The notes under the pieces were generated by a model. The model was not told the origin of the DNA, did no database searches, and was given only the letters and a program-made list of their open reading frames with translations. From a virus: a DNA stretch of 30,071 bases. Location of the stretch: the IMG/VR virus record IMGVR_UViG_3300007520_000004; one strand, 5' to 3'. Shown here in pieces: positions 200 through 19,884 of the stretch (the first letter of the stretch is position 1; each line of letters starts with the position of its first letter). The position numbers and the translations under genes were made by a program.

Positions 200-619
200 T
201 TAATATTTTTTGATTTTATTTAATTGTCTCTTGACTTTTTCCCAATATCCTAACGTGCTTTTCTTTTTATCACCATTGCCGCCACCATTCCAGCGTCTTG
301 CAACCTTCTCGTCTGTGGCATCCTTTGTGTTTTGTCTTACAATATTAAACATTTCTTTTGACTTGCTAACGCTCCAGCGGTCTTTTAATGTATATTTATT
401 AAAGCCTAAGAGTCTGTTTACTTCTCTTACCATTATAGGGCGTATTTGCAACACTCCTACGGCATCTTCTTTAGAATTGTATGCCATACTATCGCCCCGA
501 CTTTCTACGTGGATAATGGCTTCTATTAAGCTATTTATTTTTGTTAATTTAACCCTAACCACATCCGCTGAGGACGTGGCGAGGAAAAAAAACAATAAAT
601 ACATAACAGACAATCTCAT
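200..619 (-). CDS. Secreted lytic transglycosylase (SLT / lysozyme-like domain)
   Basis: 139 aa. N-terminal signal-like hydrophobic segment MRLSVMYLLFFFLATSSA. SLT-type motifs HVESRGD (catalytic Glu-Ser) and AVGVLQI. 4-nt overlap with the upstream gene. Confidence 0.7.
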   Translation of the reverse strand: MRLSVMYLLFFFLATSSADVVRVKLTKINSLIEAIIHVESRGDSMAYNSKEDAVGVLQIRPIMVREVNRLLGFNKYTLKDRWSVSKSKEMFNIVRQNTKDATDEKVARRWNGGGNGDKKKSTLGYWEKVKRQLNKIKKY

Positions 620-1038
620 CTTCGGGTAATCCTTTGAATTCTATTTGATGTAAAAAGTATTTCGCATAAATTTTCGTGCCTTCTATAATATAATTGATTT
701 GTTTCGGCATCTGATTCATATACTTTATTGGCGTGAATGATTGTGCTATGGTCTCTGCCGCCTAAGAACTTGCCTACGCTTTTTAAGGGTAGATTAAGTA
801 TCTGCATAATAAAGTAACTGACCGCAAATCTTACCTCTATTATTTCACGCTTTCGGGTGCTGCTCTTTACTATCTGTATGAGCTCAGCTTCTGTAATATC
901 AGGATGAGTAATCTTCAATATTTTCTTATCGCAAAAATACTTAGCTATTACAGAGATTACTTTATCGGGAGTGCTTATATCTGTTAGCTGCCTATTGATA
1001 GTATATATGTCCATTGCTGGAATTAAGTATGGGTTCAT
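616..1038 (-). CDS. DnaA domain IV-like helix-turn-helix DNA-binding protein
   Basis: The C-terminal half VGKFLGGRDHSTIIHANKV matches the DnaA C-terminal signature (FGGRDHTTV.HA). No AAA+ domain is present. Confidence 0.65.
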   Translation of the reverse strand: MNPYLIPAMDIYTINRQLTDISTPDKVISVIAKYFCDKKILKITHPDITEAELIQIVKSSTRKREIIEVRFAVSYFIMQILNLPLKSVGKFLGGRDHSTIIHANKVYESDAETNQLYYRRHENLCEILFTSNRIQRITRR

Positions 1039-3480: not shown

Positions 3481-3484
3481 TTTG

Positions 3485-3492
3485 CGAATATA
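3485..3492 (-). promoter_or_regulatory. -7 box-like TATATTCG, 4 nt before the ATG of the rusA-like gene (leftward early promoter)
   Basis: The reverse complement of 3481..3492 is TATATTCGCAAA followed directly by ATG (3480). Confidence 0.4.
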
Positions 3493-3505
3493 TTAAAAAT
3501 AAAGT

Positions 3506-3513
3506 TATATTTG
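3506..3513 (+). promoter_or_regulatory. -7 box TATATTTG(CA), rightward early promoter
   Basis: Exact TAnnTTTG match in the divergent control region, about 100 nt upstream of 3622. Confidence 0.45.
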
Positions 3514-3621: not shown

Positions 3622-4311
3622 ATGGCAGAGAAATTAAACAGCTATGAATTGAGCAGGTCATTTATAAACTTCGCTTTTGATAACCCTGAAAAGATAAACC
3701 CAAACCACTACGCTATTTATTTCTTTGCAATAGAACATTGTAACAGATTAGGGTGGAAAGATAAGTTTGGGTTTCCTACGATGATGGCTTGTGATGCAGT
3801 AGGCATAAAAAAGGCTCAGACATTTATAAAATACTTTAACGATTTAGAATATTGGGGATTTATAAAAGTAGTAGAAAGGTCAAGAAATCAATACTCTGCA
3901 AACATAATAAGCCTAATAAGTGCCGAACCGAAAAAAGGCGAAGCACTAGATAAAGCAATGGTCAACCACGCGGTAAAGCAATCGTTAAGCAATAGTCCTG
4001 TAGATAAACAAGTAAACAAAGAACAAGTAAACAAGTGTTTAGATAGATATAAAATATTCTTGTCTAAATGGAACGAAATAAAAAAGTCAAATTACAAGGG
4101 CAGTAAGAATGATGTAAATAATTTTATATTTTGGCTAGAAACATATACTCCTTCTGAAATACTAAAAGCAATAGAGAATCACGATAATACCTTTTGGGCT
4201 GAGAAGATAAACACTCAATGGCTTTTTAGAACTAAAGACACCAAAGGGCAACCAGTGGATTACATAGGGCAATTATTAGAACACGTAAACAGAAGCAAGC
4301 TGAGAGTATGA
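3622..4311 (+). CDS. Putative replication initiation / origin-binding protein
   Basis: First gene of the rightward operon, coupled to the helicase gene. The N-terminal region (YAIYFFAIEHCNRLGW..FGFPTMMACDAVGIKKAQTFIKYFNDLEYWGFIKV) looks like a winged-helix replication-protein N-terminus. The call rests on position and pattern only. Confidence 0.4.
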   Translation: MAEKLNSYELSRSFINFAFDNPEKINPNHYAIYFFAIEHCNRLGWKDKFGFPTMMACDAVGIKKAQTFIKYFNDLEYWGFIKVVERSRNQYSANIISLISAEPKKGEALDKAMVNHAVKQSLSNSPVDKQVNKEQVNKCLDRYKIFLSKWNEIKKSNYKGSKNDVNNFIFWLETYTPSEILKAIENHDNTFWAEKINTQWLFRTKDTKGQPVDYIGQLLEHVNRSKLRV

Positions 4312-6232: not shown

Positions 6233-6360
6233 TGCAAGAGTTAAATGAGTTACAAAAGGAGCTCGAGTCATTAAGCCCCTCTTGGAATCTATTTGGAAAG
6301 GTAGATAGAATGAAATTATTAGTAGAGCAATTGAAATTTAAATTAAATAAAAATGAGTAA
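6232..6360 (+). CDS. Hypothetical 42-aa protein
   Basis: Hand translation: MQELNELQKELESLSPSWNLFGKVDRMKLLVEQLKFKLNKNE. TAATG start overlap, and the stop overlaps the next gene. Confidence 0.35.
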   Translation: MQELNELQKELESLSPSWNLFGKVDRMKLLVEQLKFKLNKNE

Positions 6361-6619
6361 CGAAAAAAAAGAAAAAGTATTCGCAGAAGGGTTTATGTTC
6401 AAGATGAAGCCCGACTCTCCCGAGTGGGTAATCGGTAGCCTAAGTCTAAAGTCTGAGGATGCGATTAAGTTTATTAACGAGCACACCGACAAGGGTTGGC
6501 TTAATCTAAACGTCAATGTTGGCAAGAGTGGCAAGCCTTATGTAGAGCTAAACCAATGGAAGCCAAGTCAAGATAAGGTAACGCAAAACGCTACCGAGCC
6601 AGACGGACTTCCTTTTTGA
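6353..6619 (+). CDS. Putative ssDNA-binding-like protein with an SSB-type C-terminal tip
   Basis: 88 aa in the replication module. The C-terminus ..ATEPDGLPF resembles the acidic ..DDDIPF tip of bacterial SSB. The fold is not verifiable by eye. Confidence 0.4.
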   Translation: MSNEKKEKVFAEGFMFKMKPDSPEWVIGSLSLKSEDAIKFINEHTDKGWLNLNVNVGKSGKPYVELNQWKPSQDKVTQNATEPDGLPF

Positions 6620-7968
6620 ATTTAGAGGATATTTATTTTGACAAGGGCATCCGAGAATATGCTTTGAAGCTGACCTCTGATAAAGACGAAGCTGAGGATT
6701 TAGTCTCTATTGCCTTTGAAATTTGCCTAAGCAAAAAGCCAGTCGATAACCTCGCTGGCTATTTTGCTATGGTAATGCGAAACCAATGGTTTAAAAAGAT
6801 AAACACCAAAGACCCGTACTTTGACAACGAAAGCAACGAGCATCCCGAAGTGGAGGAGGTGCTTAGTAGAATGGGACACTACCACTCTAATATACTAAAG
6901 GCGGTTTACAACGGAAACAATCTCACACAGATACATAAAGGGGCATCAATAGGATATAGAACCCTTAAAAGCGACTACAAAAAAGCTAAAAAAGAATTTA
7001 AAATTATGTATGAAAACAATATTAAGATAGCTATAATAGTCCGCAGTATTAGCGGAGTGGCTTACCATAGATTAATAATGCCAATGGCTAAGATGAGCAG
7101 AGACTATGGCATCGAGGTTGTTTGCTTGCTAAACAAGGAGGACGAGTTCTTTGAAAATCTGCAAGGGGTTACCCACGTAATTTACAACCGCAATATCTCG
7201 GGTCTAATGAAGCCAGAGGAGTCCTATATGAAACTTAAAGCAAAAGGCATCAAGGTTATTTGCGACATAGATGATTATTGGATACTACCCAAGAGCCACC
7301 CAATGAAGCACTATTACAGTAAAAGCAACCTTGACAAGTGTATAGTTAAAAACCTACAATTAGCGGACGTGGTATGGACTACTACCAAGCTATTGGCTGA
7401 TAAGATAATGCCATATAACAAGAATGTAGAAGTAATCAAGAATGCTTTAGACCCTATGGAAAAACAATTTGCCTACGAGGACCTAAGTATTAACTTCGAT
7501 ACCTTCTTCTATTCAGGCGGCAGCACACATATAAGAGACTTAAAGTTATTAGGCAACGCATTTGAGAATGAGAAGCTAATAATCAAAGCCCCGACGATAC
7601 CCAAGAGGATGATAGCAATTAAAAGACAGTTGAGCGAAGTCCAAGACTATGCTAAGGACTATGAACATTGTGGTATATGCGTGATACCATTGAAGGAAAA
7701 TACATTCAATAGCTGCAAGTCTGAGCTTAAAATGATAGAAGCTGGACACTTTGCAAAGCCAGTTATAGTAAGTGCCGTCGACCCTTATAATTTGCTCTCA
7801 ACAAATAAAAACTCATTAAAGGTATATAATAATGAATGGGCATCAGCAATAAAGAAAATCAAAGGCAATCATATTATGCAAGTTGAACTTGGTTTAAAGC
7901 TAAAAGAGGACGTGATGTTGAAGCACGATTTAACGAAAGAGAACGAAAAGAGATTACAAACATTATGA
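6616..7968 (+). CDS. Sigma-70/ECF-like N-terminal domain fused in frame to a GT-B-like glycosyltransferase
   Basis: The first ~130 aa carry a region-2-like segment (DEAEDLVSIAFEICLSKKP..LAGYFAMVMRNQWFKK) and a region-4-like HTH (NNLTQIHKGASIGYRTLKSDYKKAKKEF). The rest carries KIAIIVRSISGVAYHRLIMP, ICDIDDYW, FFYSGGSTHIRD and SELKMIEAGHFAKPVIVS (GT1/GT-B-like). TTG start overlaps the upstream stop. An in-frame ATG lies at 7006. Confidence 0.5.
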   Translation: MNLEDIYFDKGIREYALKLTSDKDEAEDLVSIAFEICLSKKPVDNLAGYFAMVMRNQWFKKINTKDPYFDNESNEHPEVEEVLSRMGHYHSNILKAVYNGNNLTQIHKGASIGYRTLKSDYKKAKKEFKIMYENNIKIAIIVRSISGVAYHRLIMPMAKMSRDYGIEVVCLLNKEDEFFENLQGVTHVIYNRNISGLMKPEESYMKLKAKGIKVICDIDDYWILPKSHPMKHYYSKSNLDKCIVKNLQLADVVWTTTKLLADKIMPYNKNVEVIKNALDPMEKQFAYEDLSINFDTFFYSGGSTHIRDLKLLGNAFENEKLIIKAPTIPKRMIAIKRQLSEVQDYAKDYEHCGICVIPLKENTFNSCKSELKMIEAGHFAKPVIVSAVDPYNLLSTNKNSLKVYNNEWASAIKKIKGNHIMQVELGLKLKEDVMLKHDLTKENEKRLQTL

Positions 7969-8150
7969 CTAACGAACTAGAAGTAGAGGTAAGAGAGATG
8001 CATAAACAAAAGGGCGGTAGGCTTAGCAGAGAATTAAAGCCTGAGTTTATTAAGTTGTGTAGGGAGGACTTTAACGCTAACCCCGATATGGAATGTGGCA
8101 AGTGCATTTACAAGCACGTGATAAAACTTTACGATAAATATTTTAAATGA
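7965..8150 (+). CDS. Hypothetical protein (61 aa)
   Basis: ATGA-coupled on both sides, between the glycosyltransferase and the ParB-like gene. Confidence 0.5.
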   Translation: MTNELEVEVREMHKQKGGRLSRELKPEFIKLCREDFNANPDMECGKCIYKHVIKLYDKYFK

Positions 8151-8659
8151 TAAAGATAAAAGACATAAAGACCAACCCAAACAATCCCAGACTTATAAAG
8201 GATGAGAAGTTTGCAAAATTAGTCAAATCCATAAACGAGTTTCCTAAGATGATGGAGCTACGACCTTTAGTGGTTAATGCAGACAATATGATTATAGGCG
8301 GAAATATGCGTTTTAAGGCAATTAAAGAGCTTGGGTATACTACCATACCAAAAGAATGGGTAAAGCGAGCAGACGGGCTTACAGAGGGCGAGACAAGGCG
8401 ATTCATCATAGCGGACAACGTAGGCTTTGGAGAACACGATTGGGATATGCTGGCGAATGACTTTGATGTAAAGGAATTAGAAGATTGGGGTCTTGATGGT
8501 TTTCCGTTTGAAAATGTGGCAGACGAGCCTAAGGACTTGTCTGACGACTTAAGAGAAACCTTCGAGGTTATAATAGAATGCACCTCAGAAAGAGAGCAAG
8601 AGCAAGTGTTTAATAGTATGATAAAAGATGGATACAAATGCCGAGTTTTAACATTATAA
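8147..8659 (+). CDS. ParB/Srx N-terminal-domain (ParB-like nuclease domain) protein
   Basis: DIKTNPNNPRLI, RPLVVNADNMIIGGNMRFKAIKELG, RRFIIADNVGFGEHDWDML: the ParB-N pattern typical of the phage/plasmid type that is often fused to DNA methylases. Confidence 0.75.
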   Translation: MIKIKDIKTNPNNPRLIKDEKFAKLVKSINEFPKMMELRPLVVNADNMIIGGNMRFKAIKELGYTTIPKEWVKRADGLTEGETRRFIIADNVGFGEHDWDMLANDFDVKELEDWGLDGFPFENVADEPKDLSDDLRETFEVIIECTSEREQEQVFNSMIKDGYKCRVLTL

Positions 8660-9339
8660 AAGAAAGTAATCCGACAGAGACTTATAGGGTCTCAAGTGTT
8701 TTGAATATGTTTGATTTAGATATTTCTAAAATAAAAGAACATTTCGAGGGGAATATAGACATAGAAGGTAAAGACTGGAATGTAGGTTTAATAGTTGGGG
8801 GGTCTGGAACGGGAAAATCTACGATAGCAAAAGAAGTCTTTGGCGAAAATTACTTTACTGAAAACATCTACGAGTCCGAAACGGTTATAGACGATATGCC
8901 ACAGGAAAAGAGCGTAAAAGAAATAACAAAAACATTTACAAGCGTAGGTTTTGCATCTCCACCAAGTTGGTTAAAACCTTATAGCGTTTTATCTAATGGC
9001 GAAAAAATGAGGGTGGATTTAGCAAATTGTATTTTGCAGGAAAAAGAAATAATTGTATTTGATGAATTTACAAGCGTAGTTAATCGAGAGGTCGCAAAGA
9101 CTGGCAGCTTTGCAATATCAAAGGCAGTAAAAAAACTAAATAAGAAATTCATAGCAGTAGCGTGTCATTCCGATATTATAGAATGGCTTGAGCCTGATTG
9201 GATTTATAACACTGATGAACAGAGGTTTTTTTTTGCCCTAAAAAATACAAAAGACCAGCTATGGAACTTCAAATCTTTAGGATTGGGAATGAGAATAAAA
9301 AACGAGTTTGGGAAGTATTCAGGAAGTATCACTATCTAA
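8638..9339 (+). CDS. Soluble ABC-type ATPase (single nucleotide-binding domain, no membrane domain)
   Basis: Walker A GGSGTGKST, signature-like LSNGEKMR, Walker B IIVFDEFTS, H-loop ACHSD. The 3' end contains an in-phase T9 run (FFF). Confidence 0.7.
   Translation: MPSFNIIKESNPTETYRVSSVLNMFDLDISKIKEHFEGNIDIEGKDWNVGLIVGGSGTGKSTIAKEVFGENYFTENIYESETVIDDMPQEKSVKEITKTFTSVGFASPPSWLKPYSVLSNGEKMRVDLANCILQEKEIIVFDEFTSVVNREVAKTGSFAISKAVKKLNKKFIAVACHSDIIEWLEPDWIYNTDEQRFFFALKNTKDQLWNFKSLGLGMRIKNEFGKYSGSITI
9226..9234 (+). other. T9 run / U UUU UUU slippery site at the ATPase-GNAT junction
   Basis: TTT TTT TTT lies in phase with 8638..9339. The -1 frame opens at 9219 and is continuous with the GNAT ORF. 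Confidence 0.5.
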
Positions 9340-9755
9340 ATACAAATTTACACCCAGCAGCAGAACAATGGATTGGATTAATTAACGGTGAATTGGCTTG
9401 TCATACTGGTATTATTCAGTTTCCAATGCGTAAAGGGTGGAAGCGTGTTCATAGAATGGTTGTGCTACCAGATTACCAAGGTATCGGGATAGGAACGGCT
9501 TTTGAAAATTACACAAGCCAATACTATGCAGATTTAGGATGGAATGTAAATGTAACAACAACAACGCCAGCGTTAGTCCATTCATTATGTAGGTCGAAAA
9601 AATGGAGTTTAGTAAGGGCAAATAGGGTTAAAACAACTTGGGCTAATTTTAAAAAATATAATACAGATGTAGGCAAAGGGAGTAAATCAATGGAAGCTCT
9701 AGCAAAAAATAGCAGTATTAACAGAATAACCTACTCCTTTAATTTTATTAAATAA
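9261..9755 (+). CDS. GNAT-family acyltransferase
   Basis: RMVVLPDYQGIGIGTAF is the GNAT motif A (Q/RxxGxG/A). Overlaps the ATPase ORF by 79 nt in the -1 frame. Confidence 0.7.
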   Translation: MELQIFRIGNENKKRVWEVFRKYHYLNTNLHPAAEQWIGLINGELACHTGIIQFPMRKGWKRVHRMVVLPDYQGIGIGTAFENYTSQYYADLGWNVNVTTTTPALVHSLCRSKKWSLVRANRVKTTWANFKKYNTDVGKGSKSMEALAKNSSINRITYSFNFIK

Positions 9756-9774
9756 TACAGAACGTTTACAGAAC
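9756..9774 (+). repeat. Tandem 8-bp repeat TACAGAAC-gtt-TACAGAAC upstream of terS
   Basis: Read directly in the 26-nt intergenic gap before 9782. Confidence 0.6.
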
Positions 9775-9781
9775 AAACACA

Positions 9782-12595: not shown

Positions 12596-12623
12596 ATTAC
12601 CCTAAATTTTAAAGGGCAAATAA

Positions 12624-12637
12624 GTATATATAAGTAG
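12624..12637 (+). promoter_or_regulatory. GTATATATAAGTAG motif abutting the ATG of 12638 (candidate late promoter / leaderless start)
   Basis: A copy identical over 13-14 nt abuts the GTG of 18748. Lies just downstream of a terminator, so transcription must re-initiate. Confidence 0.4.
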
Positions 12638-13891
12638 ATGGCATTAACAATAGAAGACCAACCGACGGCAGCTCTAGTAAGACCCACATTTGCACCAATA
12701 GAATTACTACTATCTACGGATACGGATATATCTCTTGTGTTAGGGTTTAAGATAGTATGCAAGGTGTACTTAGACCCAAACGGAACGGACACACTCATAA
12801 GCACTCAGCAGATATATTTAATTCCTAATACTACGCAAGCAGTGTTTAGCGTTCAGGATGTAATCAAAAGCTATGTGGCAGACTCTTACAGTGTAATCAA
12901 TGGAGATACGGTAGACGTTGCAGAAACGTCCTTAAGTGATTTCAGATTAACCTTTGAGGAATTTTACGACGGGGCTTTGCGAGGAGGTTCAGCAATATCT
13001 AATTTGTTTACTGCGTGGTACGCTTCTCCCTCTTACGTGGAGTTTGCTGCTAACGATTGGCACAACTGGCAGATGAAGGCTGGGGACATAGATAAAGAGT
13101 TCCTTAATGCTTACGGAAACCAAGCGTACAAGTTTACATCCTTCGACCTAAACGACCATTGGTTAAAATTAAAGCCTACACAGAAGTATCAGATACAATG
13201 GCTACAAGAATATACCGCAAGTGATGCAGGAATAGAAATACACTTAGACACCTTTGATAGTAATTTTACAAGCATAATATCCACGACCATAGCAGTAGGG
13301 GCTACTAATGTAGGACACTACTCTTTAGACGTTGGTCCTGCTGAATTAGCTGCTCATTCGTGGGCTGCTAGTGTAGTTATGACAAATGTAAGATACTACG
13401 TTTTGACCGTATTTGAAACCAACGACCCTGACCAAGAGATGAAGTCTATATTGTTTGAGGTAGATAGCTGCGATACAAACTACACACCGTATGAGCTGCA
13501 CTGGCTCAATCACAAAGGAGGGTACGATAGTATGACCTTCGACGGCAAATCAAAAGAGAGTACAAGCATAAACAAGTCGTTTGCAAAGTATGCAAATAGT
13601 AACGTAGTAGGCACATCGTTATCTTATAAAACAAGCAACCAACGTACTAGAGCGTTCCACACGGGTTTAAAAACCAACTACCAATTAAATAGCCGACTAT
13701 TAAAAGACTTCGAGATGCAAGGACTAGCAGACTTATATAGCAGCCCCAGTGTATATTGGAATAGTCCGAATGGCTTTGTCAGCGTCAATGCAGAAATGAC
13801 TACATTCAATAGAGCCAAATCAGAGGACGGTAAAGTCTTTAGCGTGGAGGTTACTATTAGCATAGACAATAGCGACGAGAGACAATGGTAA
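12638..13891 (+). CDS. Virion structural protein (putative distal tail / baseplate-type)
   Basis: 417-aa ORF heading the structural block and coupled to the 944-aa tail protein gene. No catalytic motif. Function inferred from context. Confidence 0.45.
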   Translation: MALTIEDQPTAALVRPTFAPIELLLSTDTDISLVLGFKIVCKVYLDPNGTDTLISTQQIYLIPNTTQAVFSVQDVIKSYVADSYSVINGDTVDVAETSLSDFRLTFEEFYDGALRGGSAISNLFTAWYASPSYVEFAANDWHNWQMKAGDIDKEFLNAYGNQAYKFTSFDLNDHWLKLKPTQKYQIQWLQEYTASDAGIEIHLDTFDSNFTSIISTTIAVGATNVGHYSLDVGPAELAAHSWAASVVMTNVRYYVLTVFETNDPDQEMKSILFEVDSCDTNYTPYELHWLNHKGGYDSMTFDGKSKESTSINKSFAKYANSNVVGTSLSYKTSNQRTRAFHTGLKTNYQLNSRLLKDFEMQGLADLYSSPSVYWNSPNGFVSVNAEMTTFNRAKSEDGKVFSVEVTISIDNSDERQW

Positions 13892-18734: not shown

Positions 18735-18747
18735 GTATATATAAGTA
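18735..18747 (+). promoter_or_regulatory. GTATATATAAGTA motif abutting the GTG start of 18748
   Basis: Second copy of the motif found at 12624..12637. Confidence 0.4.
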
Positions 18748-19884
18748 GTGGACTTGCCTTTAATTGAATTCAAACTTAGCGATGATGTCGAAGGACTGCA
18801 AGCTATTGCTTTCGTAGATACTCCAGCCATTGGCTTGAACTACCAAGCGTTTGCAAATCAAAAGTTTGAAATTATCAACGAGGACAAGAGAATAGTAATG
18901 GGTGCAGCAATGATACCCGACTTACCTATTTATCGTAGAGACGAACGTGGTGAGTACTATGCAATCTTTAAAAAGGACACTATCAAAGCACTCGTGCAAA
19001 AGCTATTTAAGGAGAATAAGCATAATAACTTTAACGAGCAACACAACGCATTTAAGATACTTGATGGCGTTTATATCTACCAATCATTCATAACAGATGC
19101 AGAACTAGGCATATCAGCCCCAACGGGCTTTGAGAACGTAGCAGACGGCACGTGGTTCATAGCCGCAAAAGTAGAGAATGATGAAGCGTGGGAGAAGGTC
19201 AAGAAAGACGGTATATTAAAGGGCTTTAGTGTTGAGGGTGTGTTTGACTTAGAGCCGTATAAATTTAAAAAAATGAATAAAATAAACTTAGAAAACGTAA
19301 TCAATACGTTGAAATCTGTGTTCGCAGATACTGAGGATGTAGTAGTCGAAGAAACTTTCGGTGAAGCTACCTTAGTAGACGGGACAATCGTAAAATGGGA
19401 AGGCGAGCTTGTAGAAGGTGCTGCCCTTATAGTAGTACTACCTGAGGGTGAAGTAGCGGCTCCCGATGGGATACACGAACTAGAAGACGGTACTATACTA
19501 GAGACTGCTGGCGGTCTTGTAGTAAGTATCCAAGCAATAGGCGAGGAGGTTATAGTAGAAGATAACGAGTTCACTACTGAAATGCTAGATACTTTAATCG
19601 AGAAGGCTATGGCTAAGTATGCAGAAGCGTTTACTGCTTCTTTGGATTTAGTACGTTCAGAGAATGAGGGTCTGAAATTAGAATTAGCTTCTATTTCTGC
19701 CGCTAAGGACGAAATGAAAAAGGAGTTTACTGCCACTCTAAACAAGGTGGGTGTAGAGTTGGAGGAGATTGCTAAGACAGAAGTGTCTACCGCGTCTAAG
19801 CCGCAAGAGTTTAAAGCAACCACAAGAGCTGAAAAGGCTGCTAGAATGGGAGCAATTATTAGAGCAAATAAAATAAATAAATAA
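18748..19884 (+). CDS. Prohead protease (XkdF-like) fused to a scaffold-like coiled-coil C-terminus
   Basis: N-terminal half: AIAFVDTPAIG, IVMGAAMIPDLPIYRRDE.GEYY, FNEQHN, WFIAAKVENDEAWEKVKKDGILKGFSVEG (XkdF-type pattern). Acidic/helical C-terminal half. Immediately upstream of the capsid gene. GTG start. Confidence 0.55.
   Translation: MDLPLIEFKLSDDVEGLQAIAFVDTPAIGLNYQAFANQKFEIINEDKRIVMGAAMIPDLPIYRRDERGEYYAIFKKDTIKALVQKLFKENKHNNFNEQHNAFKILDGVYIYQSFITDAELGISAPTGFENVADGTWFIAAKVENDEAWEKVKKDGILKGFSVEGVFDLEPYKFKKMNKINLENVINTLKSVFADTEDVVVEETFGEATLVDGTIVKWEGELVEGAALIVVLPEGEVAAPDGIHELEDGTILETAGGLVVSIQAIGEEVIVEDNEFTTEMLDTLIEKAMAKYAEAFTASLDLVRSENEGLKLELASISAAKDEMKKEFTATLNKVGVELEEIAKTEVSTASKPQEFKATTRAEKAARMGAIIRANKINK

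Follow-up and report, generated by a model that had tools for sequence, protein, structure and literature searches.

A sigma factor directs RNA polymerase to its start sites. Among the ECF sigma factors, C-terminal extensions are the second commonest mode of regulation and are accompanied by the absence of an anti-sigma gene (PMC7826278; PMC3426412). The extension types known so far are SnoaL-like, TPR, Cys-rich and DUF1835 domains and transmembrane segments (PMC7826278). For example, ECF41, ECF42, ECF56/SigG1 and ECF238 carry a sigma2-sigma4 core and then a C-terminal domain in one polypeptide. The same order is seen in a 450-residue protein encoded in the window, by which we mean the whole 30,071-nucleotide stretch of viral DNA analysed here (IMG/VR record IMGVR_UViG_3300007520_000004). 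Its extra domain comes directly after sigma4 (helix 114–133, then strand 137–142), as in ECF41, ECF42 and ECF56; SigG1 (7qh5) is among the structural matches of its sigma module; and, as with extension-bearing ECFs, no obvious classical anti-sigma gene lies adjacent. However, none of the described ECF extensions is a glycosyltransferase (GT) or an enzyme with a conserved active site (PMC7826278), whereas that of the fusion has a GT-B fold and falls outside the known types. The fusion also differs in being phage-encoded and in having a 130-residue core that scores under the Pfam thresholds defining ECFs. The earlier note on this DNA had not recognised the arrangement, and indeed no sigma-GT architecture turned up in the literature searched, the BFVD library of viral structures or the ECF classification; the arrangement is nonetheless not unique to this phage, as shown below.

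A second parallel is PhyR, which appears among the fold matches and likewise joins a sigma2/sigma4-like fold to another domain, with the fold not necessarily used as a sigma factor. The partner in PhyR is a receiver domain with an anti-anti-sigma role in Alphaproteobacteria, whereas the partner in the fusion is an enzyme and the DNA-contacting residues of the module look retained.

On the glycosyltransferase side, GlgM, BshA, MshA, PglA, GtfC/Gtf3 and TarM share the two-Rossmann GT-B fold of the fusion (Foldseek E 1e-10 to 1e-8, TM by target 0.56–0.65). The GT domain retains the second Glu of the donor-binding motif and the Gly-rich loop of solved GT4-type enzymes, but identity to them is 10–16% and they are not detected by sequence profile. 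T4 beta-glucosyltransferase and other phage DNA glycosyltransferases are, like the fusion, phage-encoded GT-B enzymes. Members of the same GT family, PHROG 7162, are gp073 and gp074 of the Phapecoctavirus phAPEC8 (∼31% identity over residues 137–450, E about 1e-31). These GTs, of predicted function, have neither a sigma module nor a sigma-like neighbour and lie in a run of four GT genes beside replication genes.

The fused reading frame and its two domains

The frame, its parts and the gene before it are as follows.

6353..6619, plus strand: upstream 88-residue gene of the replication module, the last gene before the fusion, in a position conserved in the fused clade
6616..7968, plus strand: the whole sigma-GT fusion, an uninterrupted frame of 450 codons and a stop
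6616..6801, plus strand: sigma2-like domain, residues 1–62 (helices 3–7, 10–20, 23–39 and 46–62; from Pfam, profile and AF2/Foldseek)
6802..6843, plus strand: acidic sigma2-sigma4 linker, residues 63–76, predicted disordered (pLDDT <50 at 65–75)
6844..7014, plus strand: sigma4-like helix-turn-helix domain, residues 77–133 (AF2 helices 77–85, 88–98, 103–110 and 114–133; spanned by the SigL and SigW alignments)
7006..7008, plus strand: Met131, an in-frame ATG with A-rich surroundings that may serve as an internal start for a free GT but is not conserved
7024..7965, plus strand: GT-B (GT4-like) glycosyltransferase domain, residues 137–450 (from PHROG 7162, Foldseek and invariant columns)

The fusion begins at a TTG codon that shares a TTGA overlap with the stop of the 88-residue gene. 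All peptide motifs that the earlier note had quoted from this frame are present, and more than 100 independent metagenome proteins, found in JGI, ENA, Logan, Tara and NCBI assemblies, have the same architecture (447–502 residues, 36–85% identity). About 100 of these are 447–454 residues long and 51–85% identical to the fusion; a second set has 478–502 residues and 36–40% identity, with 100% query coverage in both. Relatives of the protein, fused or GT-only, occur on 592 viral contigs. The identical layout in so many independent proteins means that the fusion is not a sequencing artefact. A stop or frameshift separating two ordinary genes had been named as what would overturn the fusion, but the aligned DNA of 16 related loci carries no in-frame stop across it. 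With equal architecture and length in independent assemblies, and no point found in its support, the reading that a sequencing or assembly error, or an overlooked frameshift, merged two genes is refuted.

Synonymous sites are saturated among relatives of the fusion gene (pS 0.7–0.85, with pN 0.09–0.19), and in close pairs dN/dS is ∼0.05 in the N-terminal and C-terminal parts alike. Both halves are under purifying selection. The full-length AF2 model has a pLDDT of 90.6 and a pTM of 0.77. It had been proposed that the ATG at 7006 sits at the domain boundary and could give a separate glycosyltransferase. The codon is in frame and six residues ahead of the first GT strand (137–142), but it lies inside the last sigma4 helix and is confined to the closest subclade; other members have KILH, KVLY and the like at this position, and the subclade of 478–502 residues has a different Met at about 135. 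Since the fused clade as a whole does not share this start, what it conserves is the fused product. A megablast of 5 kb around the fusion gene against deposited phages gave no match, and tblastn of the N-terminal module and one stand-alone relative against 50,697 phage records gave nothing usable; thus there is no cultured representative to name.

Judged from profiles and models, residues 1–133 are a divergent ECF-type sigma module made up of sigma2, a 14-residue linker and sigma4, which upholds the sigma-like reading of this part in the earlier note. The sigma2-like domain has the motifs AEDLVS (region 2.2-like, with Q replaced by S) and YFAMVMRNQW (region 2.4-like, with its RN). Searched against PDB sequences, the N-terminal profile (alignment A2) returned ECF sigma factors only, nine in first place. 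The best matches were SigR (E=4e-6) and SigL (E=2e-4, spanning sigma2 and sigma4), with SigR, SigL, SigH and SigE matched in region 2. HMM alignments of this part reach SigL (query 12–134) and SigW, and the profile of the stand-alone sigma family aligns end to end with SigW (E=6.5e-5). Modelled in isolation, the module is predicted as four helices, a disordered linker and four helices (pLDDT 82). The best 50 Foldseek matches of this model are all ECF sigma or PhyR sigma-like chains, with alignments of ∼150 columns to SigL, SigE, SigH, SigW and RpoE. Sigma2 and sigma4 without sigma1.1 or sigma3 is the layout of ECF (group 4) factors, phrog_1740 (sigma factor) is matched at E=1.7e-4, and relatives carry the JGI label 'sigma24 family'. 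ECF classifications, however, require Pfam Sigma70_r2 and Sigma70_r4/r4_2 above the gathering score, and the fusion reaches Sigma70_r2 at E=0.007 (16.5 bits, cut-off 24) and has no r4 hit, so that it lies outside the Pfam definition. Several relatives do match Sigma70_r2 and r4_2, at E<0.01 in 6 and 4 of 54 family members, respectively.

The module is smaller than its relatives. The stand-alone family comprises 4733 profile matches, mostly of 150–200 residues, with the look of small but complete sigma factors; the PDB match lists contain ECF sigmas of about 160–260 residues, against 130 in the module. The linker, at ∼14 residues, is about 25–35 residues shorter than in stand-alone relatives (gap columns, alignment A2), and the loop before helix 4 is shorter by 8 residues. 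The short linker and loop and the small size make simultaneous docking of both sigma domains on RNA polymerase uncertain. A Gln in region 2.2 (DLxQE) is near-universal. In the window's fused clade a Ser invariably takes its place; the stand-alone relatives and a second fused clade keep the Gln. The region 2.4 RN motif is retained, as is the basic TLK..KAKK recognition helix of sigma4 (domain pI 9.5); this helix, YRTLKSDYKKAKKEFK, passes directly into the GT domain without a flexible linker.

The C-terminal part had been read as a GT-B glycosyltransferase, and both family and fold agree. PHROG 7162 (glycosyltransferase) is matched at E=1e-46 over 303 of 309 profile positions. The AF2 model has a pLDDT >90 over residues 134–450 and shows two Rossmann-like domains with an inter-domain cleft, as is typical of GT-B. 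Foldseek against the PDB gave 128 matches at E<=0.001, the best 50 of which are all GT-B glycosyltransferases, with GT4-type enzymes closest (GlgM at 1e-10, GtfC/Gtf3, BshA, PglA and TarM among the neighbours). A stand-alone phage GT in BFVD matches at a TMt of 0.82. Pfam Glyco_trans_1_4 stays under its threshold in the fusion (19 vs 27 bits); PF00534 and PF13692 appear in the precomputed annotation of the second fused clade. The whole-protein profile against PDB sequences found no GT and no sequence-detectable solved relative, so the GT assignment rests on PHROG and the fold.

Residues D217 and D220 (DxDDYW), H305 (GGSTH), and N365, K368, S369, K372 and E375 (KSELKxxEAG) are invariant in the family, in fused and stand-alone members alike. 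The invariance of D217, D220, H305, K368, K372 and E375 supports a predicted glycosyl transfer activity. The canonical EX7E donor-binding motif of GT4 enzymes is replaced by FNSxKSELKxxEAG, that is K-x3-K-x2-E, which aligns at the second Glu only (E375), with a variable residue eight places earlier. The GT domain has a pI of 8.95 in the fusion and an acidic 5.8–6.6 in free relatives, a mixed picture that is uninformative on DNA binding. Doubt had already been cast on classical DNA glucosylation, and rightly. T4 beta-GT is absent from the best 50 of the 128 structural neighbours, and no dCMP/dUMP hydroxymethylase, C5-methyltransferase or TET/JBP dioxygenase was found in the contig, whose sole methyltransferase is of the MT-A70 type. 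Described DNA-glycan clusters depend on hydroxymethylase, C5-methyltransferase or TET-JBP genes (bioRxiv 10.1101/2023.12.21.572611). T4-type DNA glucosylation is thus not supported.

Recurrent fusion of an adjacent gene pair

The two parts also occur as separate genes. In six loci (L052, L053, L082, L083, L098 and L087), the sigma gene overlaps the start of the GT gene, and the pair encodes homologous proteins of 159–188 (sigma-like) and 329–421 (GT) residues in the same order and genomic position as the fusion. The unfused pairs differ in making two polypeptides and in a sigma-like protein whose region 2.2 Gln is retained, whose loop is longer and whose acidic linker is longer by ∼35 residues. 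The sigma gene lies 2.4–3 kb upstream of the GT gene in 17 other loci. Of the 21 stand-alone-GT loci whose upstream flank is long enough, 20 have a sigma-like gene, a count inflated by shared synteny among related phages.

On the GT tree, these separate, adjacent and fused arrangements form a series. The window's fused clade (support 100/99) is sister to a clade with separate, stop/start-overlapping sigma and GT genes; the arrangement with the sigma gene kilobases away from the GT lies further out. There are at least two further fused clades, the second with proteins of 545–595 residues, which a homologous-protein search confirmed, and the third with 572–612 residues. Fused and unfused states alternate on the tree, and a single clade of all fused proteins is rejected by the AU test (p=8e-42). 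The fused state holds throughout the window clade (36–100% identity), and sigma-then-GT adjacency is retained down to ∼30% GT identity in spite of turnover among the flanking genes. In other lineages, an operon of several glycan genes opens with the sigma-GT gene. The sigma-GT protein represents an ancestral pair of adjacent genes that has been fused repeatedly, and the recurrent neighbouring and fusion of the two parts points to an undescribed link between their functions.

In the window, the fusion is the sole sigma-like ORF on the contig. It stands at the end of the early/replication operon, adjoining the boundary between the replication and packaging modules, in a conserved gene order of SSB-like, sigma-GT, orf61, ParB, DUF5681 and TerL.

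7965..8150, plus strand: orf61, a small CxxC protein of no Pfam family, whose ATG overlaps the stop of the fusion (ATGA)

In both the fused and the adjacent-gene clade, orf61 is conserved directly 3′ of the GT and is possibly a partner of the sigma-GT unit. A look-alike CxxC ORF 3′ of the sigma gene in the separated-gene clade was dropped as an orf61 candidate; the resemblance was by eye, and the orf61 HMM missed it. The earlier note had named ParB, ATPase and GNAT genes as operon partners. ParB is indeed a conserved downstream neighbour, but the ABC-ATPase and GNAT genes are variable cargo found in few relatives.

Possible reasons for the coupling

The reading we prefer, at slightly below an even chance, is a single bifunctional protein, both late-transcription factor and sugar transferase, whose origin is a pair of translationally coupled genes. 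The pared-down ECF-type module in the first 133 residues would most likely redirect host RNA polymerase to phage middle or late promoters, a role suggested by its being the sole sigma-like gene and by its place at the end of the early/replication operon, before the packaging genes, and indirectly by the candidate promoter of non-host type described below. The GT, of ∼315 residues, would probably use a host nucleotide-sugar as sugar donor, with a protein or envelope glycan a likelier acceptor than DNA. The fusion would have arisen when an ancestral coupled sigma-then-GT pair lost the stop codon between its genes. In related phages, this pair has been joined or separated on several occasions, which argues that the two proteins work together or need fixed 1:1 amounts, although it could be neutral repeated fusion of overlapping genes. 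A direct coupling of glycosylation to transcription initiation is doubtful. The sigma module might bring the GT to RNA polymerase or promoter DNA, with the polymerase, a transcription-associated protein or nearby DNA becoming glycosylated, or nucleotide-sugar occupancy might switch the sigma module on and off. Polymerase-directed glycosylation would be comparable in logic to the ADP-ribosylation by T4 Alt and ModA.

Alternatively, the GT could be a cis-acting regulatory extension like those of ECF41, ECF42 and ECF56, docking on sigma2/sigma4 and releasing or activating them on a nucleotide-sugar or other signal, with catalysis secondary or lost. Such control is common among ECFs and goes without an anti-sigma gene (PMC7826278; PMC3426412); the missing flexible linker after sigma4, the pTM of the full model and the stop/start overlap of the unfused relatives, which fits stoichiometric output of interacting partners, are all in keeping with it. 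Nonetheless, we hold it unlikely: the invariant residues of stand-alone GTs show the same invariance in fused ones, the family exists without any sigma inside the four-GT cluster of phAPEC8-like phages, and elsewhere the GT heads operons with more glycan enzymes, which fits a working enzyme. The pLDDT of the sigma domains, moreover, is no higher in the full-length model than in the isolated module, and the known extensions are small ligand-binding folds, not enzymes (PMC7826278). About as improbable is a reading in which the sigma-like module has no role in initiation and serves to dock the GT on RNA polymerase or DNA for modification of the polymerase, a transcription-associated protein or promoter-near DNA. 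This would leave the window's phage without a sigma factor of an otherwise conserved family, whose stand-alone members resemble complete sigma factors and far outnumber the fusions; the lack of T4 beta-GT-like neighbours among the best 50 and of a hydroxymethyl-pyrimidine pathway, and the acidity of the stand-alone GTs, also speak against it. What it does account for is a module that is reduced (region 2.2 Q to S, short linker and loop) yet strongly conserved, as if partial sigma function were kept. Its basic recognition helix, in a sigma4 of high pI, ends three residues before the GT begins; the structural neighbours include GTs that elongate protein O-glycans (GtfC/Gtf3); and the first place of sigma-GT among glycan genes elsewhere would suit an initiating enzyme that recognises the acceptor.

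Less probable still is that the fusion is mechanistically meaningless, unrelated overlapping neighbours having been joined by a small mutation and tolerated as the C-terminus of sigma4 is free, so that the halves act as if alone. A one-base change at an ATGA or TTGA overlap would be enough, the fused and unfused states alternate on the GT tree, and both halves evolve at a similar, ordinary rate. However, sigma-then-GT adjacency has outlasted the divergence of the GTs and the change of neighbours, the fused state arose more than once and persists in the whole window clade, and the sigma module was remodelled after fusion. We give very little credence to a PhyR-type decoy, a module that would titrate a host anti-sigma or other sigma-binding protein and not bind RNA polymerase: although PhyR sigma-like domains are among the structural matches and the loss of the region 2.2 Gln parallels the degeneration of mimics, true ECF sigmas from holoenzyme complexes match best, and the recognition helix conserves its DNA-contacting basic residues.

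Sigma factors with an extra domain were already known, but with small regulatory folds only; a sigma module joined to an apparently active enzyme is new relative to the sources searched. Well over a hundred marine phage proteins from independent assemblies share the fusion, and at least two other clades invented it anew. Through it, an uncharacterised and large family of small sigma-like phage proteins also comes to light, which Pfam almost entirely misses and whose members usually bear the label hypothetical. A functional coupling would represent a new mode of sigma regulation or a new polymerase- or DNA-directed glycosyltransferase: a new kind of host-takeover enzyme if the polymerase-directed reading is true, a metabolite-gated phage sigma factor if the nucleotide-sugar switch is. 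Even with a neutral coupling, the gene pair would be a marker of the late-gene switch in an abundant group of uncultured marine phages, probably of Bacteroidota, and would supply a promoter candidate.

A candidate late promoter and the probable host

12603..12640, plus strand: candidate phage-specific (late) promoter, TAAATT-N16-TATATA, 7 nt from the ATG of the first structural gene

This candidate sits 3′ of a terminator. In 11 related loci, both boxes and their spacing are conserved and the spacer sequence is variable. It is unlike the TTTG/TAnnTTTG consensus of Bacteroidota, the probable host phylum. It is a possible target of the sigma module. A second copy of GTATATATAAGTAG (at 18735) is not claimed as an equal promoter type, the upstream TAAATT box being missing.

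A prophage scan of reference genomes gave only mis-binned or MAG contigs, one of them labelled Bacteroidetes. The source is an uncultured marine phage, and its host probably belongs to the Bacteroidota, given the relatives of its terminase and a promoter of the TTTG..TAnnTTTG type at 3481–3513.

One reading frame for two modules

The window is a complete metagenomic contig of 30,071 bases. One of its genes was described in an earlier note as an in-frame fusion of a sigma-like module to a GT-B-like glycosyltransferase (GT):

6616-7968, + strand: sigma-GT gene, open over 450 codons; its TTG start overlaps the TGA of an upstream 88-aa gene

Every peptide quoted in that note was found in this frame. 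Among 5.8 billion proteins searched there were about 100 clusters of full-length relatives (447-454 aa, 51-85% identity), drawn from JGI, ENA, Logan, Tara and NCBI assemblies, and a second group of 478-502 aa with 36-40% identity and 100% query coverage. At least 592 IMG/VR contigs encode relatives, either fused or GT-only. Codon alignments with 15 related loci contained no in-frame stop codon. Synonymous sites in these alignments were saturated (pS 0.7-0.85), non-synonymous differences amounted to 0.09-0.19, and dN/dS in close pairs was ∼0.05 for the N-terminal 130 and the C-terminal 320 codons alike. Because dN/dS is low in both halves and no stop divides them, purifying selection acts on the two as one frame. 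The fusion is thus real: an artefact is refuted by the recurrence of the same architecture in ∼100 clusters from varied assemblies and by the stop-free alignments. Public annotations call the protein only ‘glycosyltransferase involved in cell wall biosynthesis’ or ‘hypothetical’. Met131 (in-frame ATG at 7006, A-rich context) had been proposed as the start of a separate GT; a free GT could be made from it in the window's subclade, but Met131 is not conserved clade-wide. A free sigma could be obtained only by proteolysis.

The window sequence alone stays below threshold against Pfam Sigma70_r2 (E=0.007, 16.5 bits, cut-off 24). A profile of N-terminal parts from related loci and stand-alone relatives (alignment A2) was compared with all PDB sequences, and its first nine matches were ECF sigma factors. 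Among them were SigR region 2 (E=4e-6), SigL across sigma2 and sigma4 (E=2e-4), RpoE, SigH, SigW and SigE. AlphaFold2 modelled residues 1-130 (pLDDT 81.9) as four helices, a disordered stretch (65-75) and four further helices. The best 50 Foldseek matches in the PDB were exclusively ECF sigma factors or the PhyR sigma-like domain, in alignments of ∼150 columns that cover both domains. Profile, model and structural matches all bear out the sigma-like character of the N-terminal part. Searched exhaustively by profile, 1.84 billion representatives yielded 4733 proteins at E≤0.001 (456 at E≤1e-10), the top matches being nearly all stand-alone proteins of 150-200 aa aligned end to end. A profile of 49 stand-alone relatives aligned with SigW over its whole length (E=6.5e-5). 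A few of these relatives match Pfam Sigma70_r2 or r4_2, one matches phrog_1740 (‘RNA polymerase sigma factor’), and some are labelled ‘sigma24 family’ by JGI.

At 130 aa the module is unusually small. It retains the region 2.4 RN motif (VMRNQW) and the basic recognition helix TLKSDYKKAKKEF. Members of the window's clade invariably have Ser where region 2.2 otherwise has its conserved Gln; their loop ahead of helix 4 is shorter by 8 residues, and their linker by ∼25-35 residues, than those of free relatives. As it has the fold and two-domain architecture of ECF sigma factors but falls outside their Pfam-based definition and lacks the region 2.2 Gln, we regard it, from sequence and model, as a relative of ECF type (sigma2-sigma4) and do not count it among the classified ECF members. 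The homologue P0121, a stand-alone 128-aa protein very close to the window's module (E=4e-50), ends ...AKKTI, just at the point where a GT would start; it stems either from an incomplete contig or a frameshift, or from natural fission inside the fused clade.

Residues 137-448 match PHROG 7162 (‘glycosyltransferase’) over 303 of 309 positions (E=1e-46), the length of a free-standing enzyme. GTs ∼31% identical were found by tblastn in Phapecoctavirus phages, where they make up two of the four consecutive GT genes of phAPEC8. Sequence profiles detected no solved GT structure among PDB sequences. The full-length AlphaFold2 model (pLDDT 90.6, pTM 0.77) matches GT4-type GT-B structures, namely GlgM (1e-10), GtfC/Gtf3, BshA, MshA, PglA and TarM. 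Its BFVD matches are free phage GTs of 339-380 aa (TM 0.70-0.82), with no fused sigma-GT entry among them. Fold and PHROG membership confirm the predicted GT-B-like domain, which lies below the Pfam threshold and lacks the canonical EX7E motif. Whether fused or free, all members share D217, D220, H305, N365, K368, S369, K372 and E375, so the enzyme is probably active. No flexible linker separates the two halves in the model: the final sigma4 helix (114-133) leads into the first GT strand (137-142). Doubt had been expressed about classical DNA glucosylation, and it holds: T4 beta-glucosyltransferase is absent from the top 50 structural neighbours, and no gene for a hydroxymethylase, a C5-methyltransferase or a TET-like enzyme was found in the contig, whose sole methyltransferase is MT-A70.

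Arrangements of the sigma and GT genes in related phages

Sigma and GT HMMs were run on related loci. A separate sigma-like gene overlaps the GT start in L052, L053, L082 (an ATGA overlap), L083, L098 and L087 (a 69-kb Bacteroidetes MAG contig); L064 has the two genes side by side but not overlapping. Another 17 loci have the sigma-like gene on the same strand as the GT, at a distance of 2.4-3 kb upstream. Among stand-alone-GT loci with enough upstream flank, 20 of 21 have a sigma-like gene, a count that comes from related phages with shared synteny.

Maximum-likelihood analysis of the GT domain recovers the fused clade of the window as monophyletic (100/99); sister to it is the clade whose separate genes overlap, and the distant-gene clade lies further out. 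A homologous protein of 542 aa (P0177) led to a second conserved set of fusions (545-595 aa) and a third (572-612 aa), all of which match the sigma HMM and fall elsewhere in the tree, among free GTs. A single clade of all fused proteins is rejected (AU p=8e-42, for a group defined after the tree was seen). Given this rejection and the varied arrangements over the tree, an old sigma-then-GT gene pair has undergone fusion or splitting more than once. A sigma neighbour is lacking in more distant GTs (phAPEC8, several MAG loci), so the link is specific to this group of aquatic phages. The 45,243-nt contig CAUYTX010000333.1, labelled Gammaproteobacteria, carries the same sigma...GT locus twice in opposite orientation (L085 and L086; 3870-16835 and 28409-41374 reversed), and probably represents a phage genome that was assembled as an inverted duplicate and then binned into a MAG.

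Genomic setting and probable host

The leftward arm of the contig carries recombination genes (exonuclease, Erf, RusA). This early arm also encodes, at 616-1038 (- strand), a 140-aa product whose Bac_DnaA_C helix-turn-helix domain (E=6.5e-13) marks it as a DNA binder resembling DnaA domain IV; it may act in origin recognition or host takeover. The rightward arm begins at 3622 and carries a helicase, small genes and the fusion, after which come orf61, a ParB-domain gene, an ABC-ATPase/GNAT gene, DUF5681, the large terminase and structural genes; throughout the fused clade, genes keep the order SSB-like, sigma-GT, orf61, ParB, cargo, DUF5681, TerL. The terminase relatives belong to phages of Parabacteroides, Bacteroides and Flavobacterium, and a promoter-like site, TTTG...TATATTTG, precedes the rightward arm, which makes a marine bacterium of the Bacteroidota the probable host.

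7965-8150, + strand: orf61, 61 aa with a conserved CGKC (CxxC); its ATG overlaps the sigma-GT stop

Homologues of orf61 immediately follow the GT, not only in the two fused subclades but also in the adjacent-gene clade, where sigma-like and GT genes are separate (E 1e-15 to 1e-35). The small protein matches no Pfam family and may be a partner of the sigma-GT unit, e.g. an anti-sigma-like or zinc-binding protein. Of the operon partners named in the earlier note, the ParB-domain gene is conserved in the fused clade, but the ABC-ATPase/GNAT gene occurs in only four of its loci. Within the region 8147-9755 (+ strand) and in loci L002-L050, the former ranges from ∼435 to 1520 nt, and this great variation makes different ParB fusion partners probable. 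The slot between the ParB and DUF5681 genes is a cargo hotspot; it holds the window's ABC-ATPase/GNAT gene only in L013, L034 and L035, as one continuous ∼1.09-kb frame. In the window, the 26-nt gap ahead of the DUF5681 gene (9756-9781, + strand) contains the direct repeat TACAGAAC-GTT-TACAGAAC.

Possible functions of the fused protein

Phage late-gene activators usually sit at the end of the early genes, just before packaging. The fusion, sole match to the sigma family HMM in the contig, lies at the end of the early genes, directly ahead of packaging. The reading we favour, though with slightly less than even confidence, is a bifunctional protein: the sigma module would serve middle or late transcription as a minimal sigma factor of the phage, the GT half would work as a sugar transferase, and the two would stay joined as partners in action or because they are required in equal amounts. 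Genes for GT2, GT7C-like, epimerase and FkbM-type methyltransferase proteins come after the sigma-GT gene or pair in two other lineages. These runs, headed by the sigma-GT gene or pair in L097 (774-9444, second fused clade) and L098 (3481-9266, an unfused relative), contain Glycos_transf_2, Glyco_transf_7C-like, epimerase and Methyltransf_21/FkbM domains and look like a phage glycan-building operon. Because glycan genes follow in both lineages, the GT would take part in glycan building, and its place fits an initiating enzyme obliged to recognise its acceptor.

The closest described arrangement is that of ECF sigma factors with a fused C-terminal extension. The 2021 ECF re-classification, which according to its authors did not capture phage ECFs, has 19 groups with SnoaL-like, TPR, Cys-rich, DUF1835 or membrane extensions; in none is the extension a glycosyltransferase, as it is in the window protein (PMC7826278). 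We consider it unlikely that the GT regulates the sigma as an extension like those of ECF41/42/56, since the residues invariant in free GTs are invariant in the fused ones too. About as unlikely is a sigma-like module that would bring the GT to RNA polymerase or DNA. A selectively neutral join has a small chance of being correct, and a PhyR-like decoy, despite the PhyR domain among the structural matches, is very improbable.

A bifunctional protein with a working sigma would have a target sequence, for which the window offers one candidate:

12603-12640, + strand: candidate promoter TAAATT-N16-TATATA-N7-ATG, after a terminator; the first structural gene is at 12638

Both boxes and their spacing are kept in 11 related loci, while the spacer sequence varies. 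The geometry is sigma-70-like and the sequence is unlike the -33/-7 consensus of Bacteroidota, the putative host group. The conserved motif is a candidate target of the sigma module, and a transcript from it would be leaderless. A partial second copy, with the downstream box only, lies at 18735-18748.
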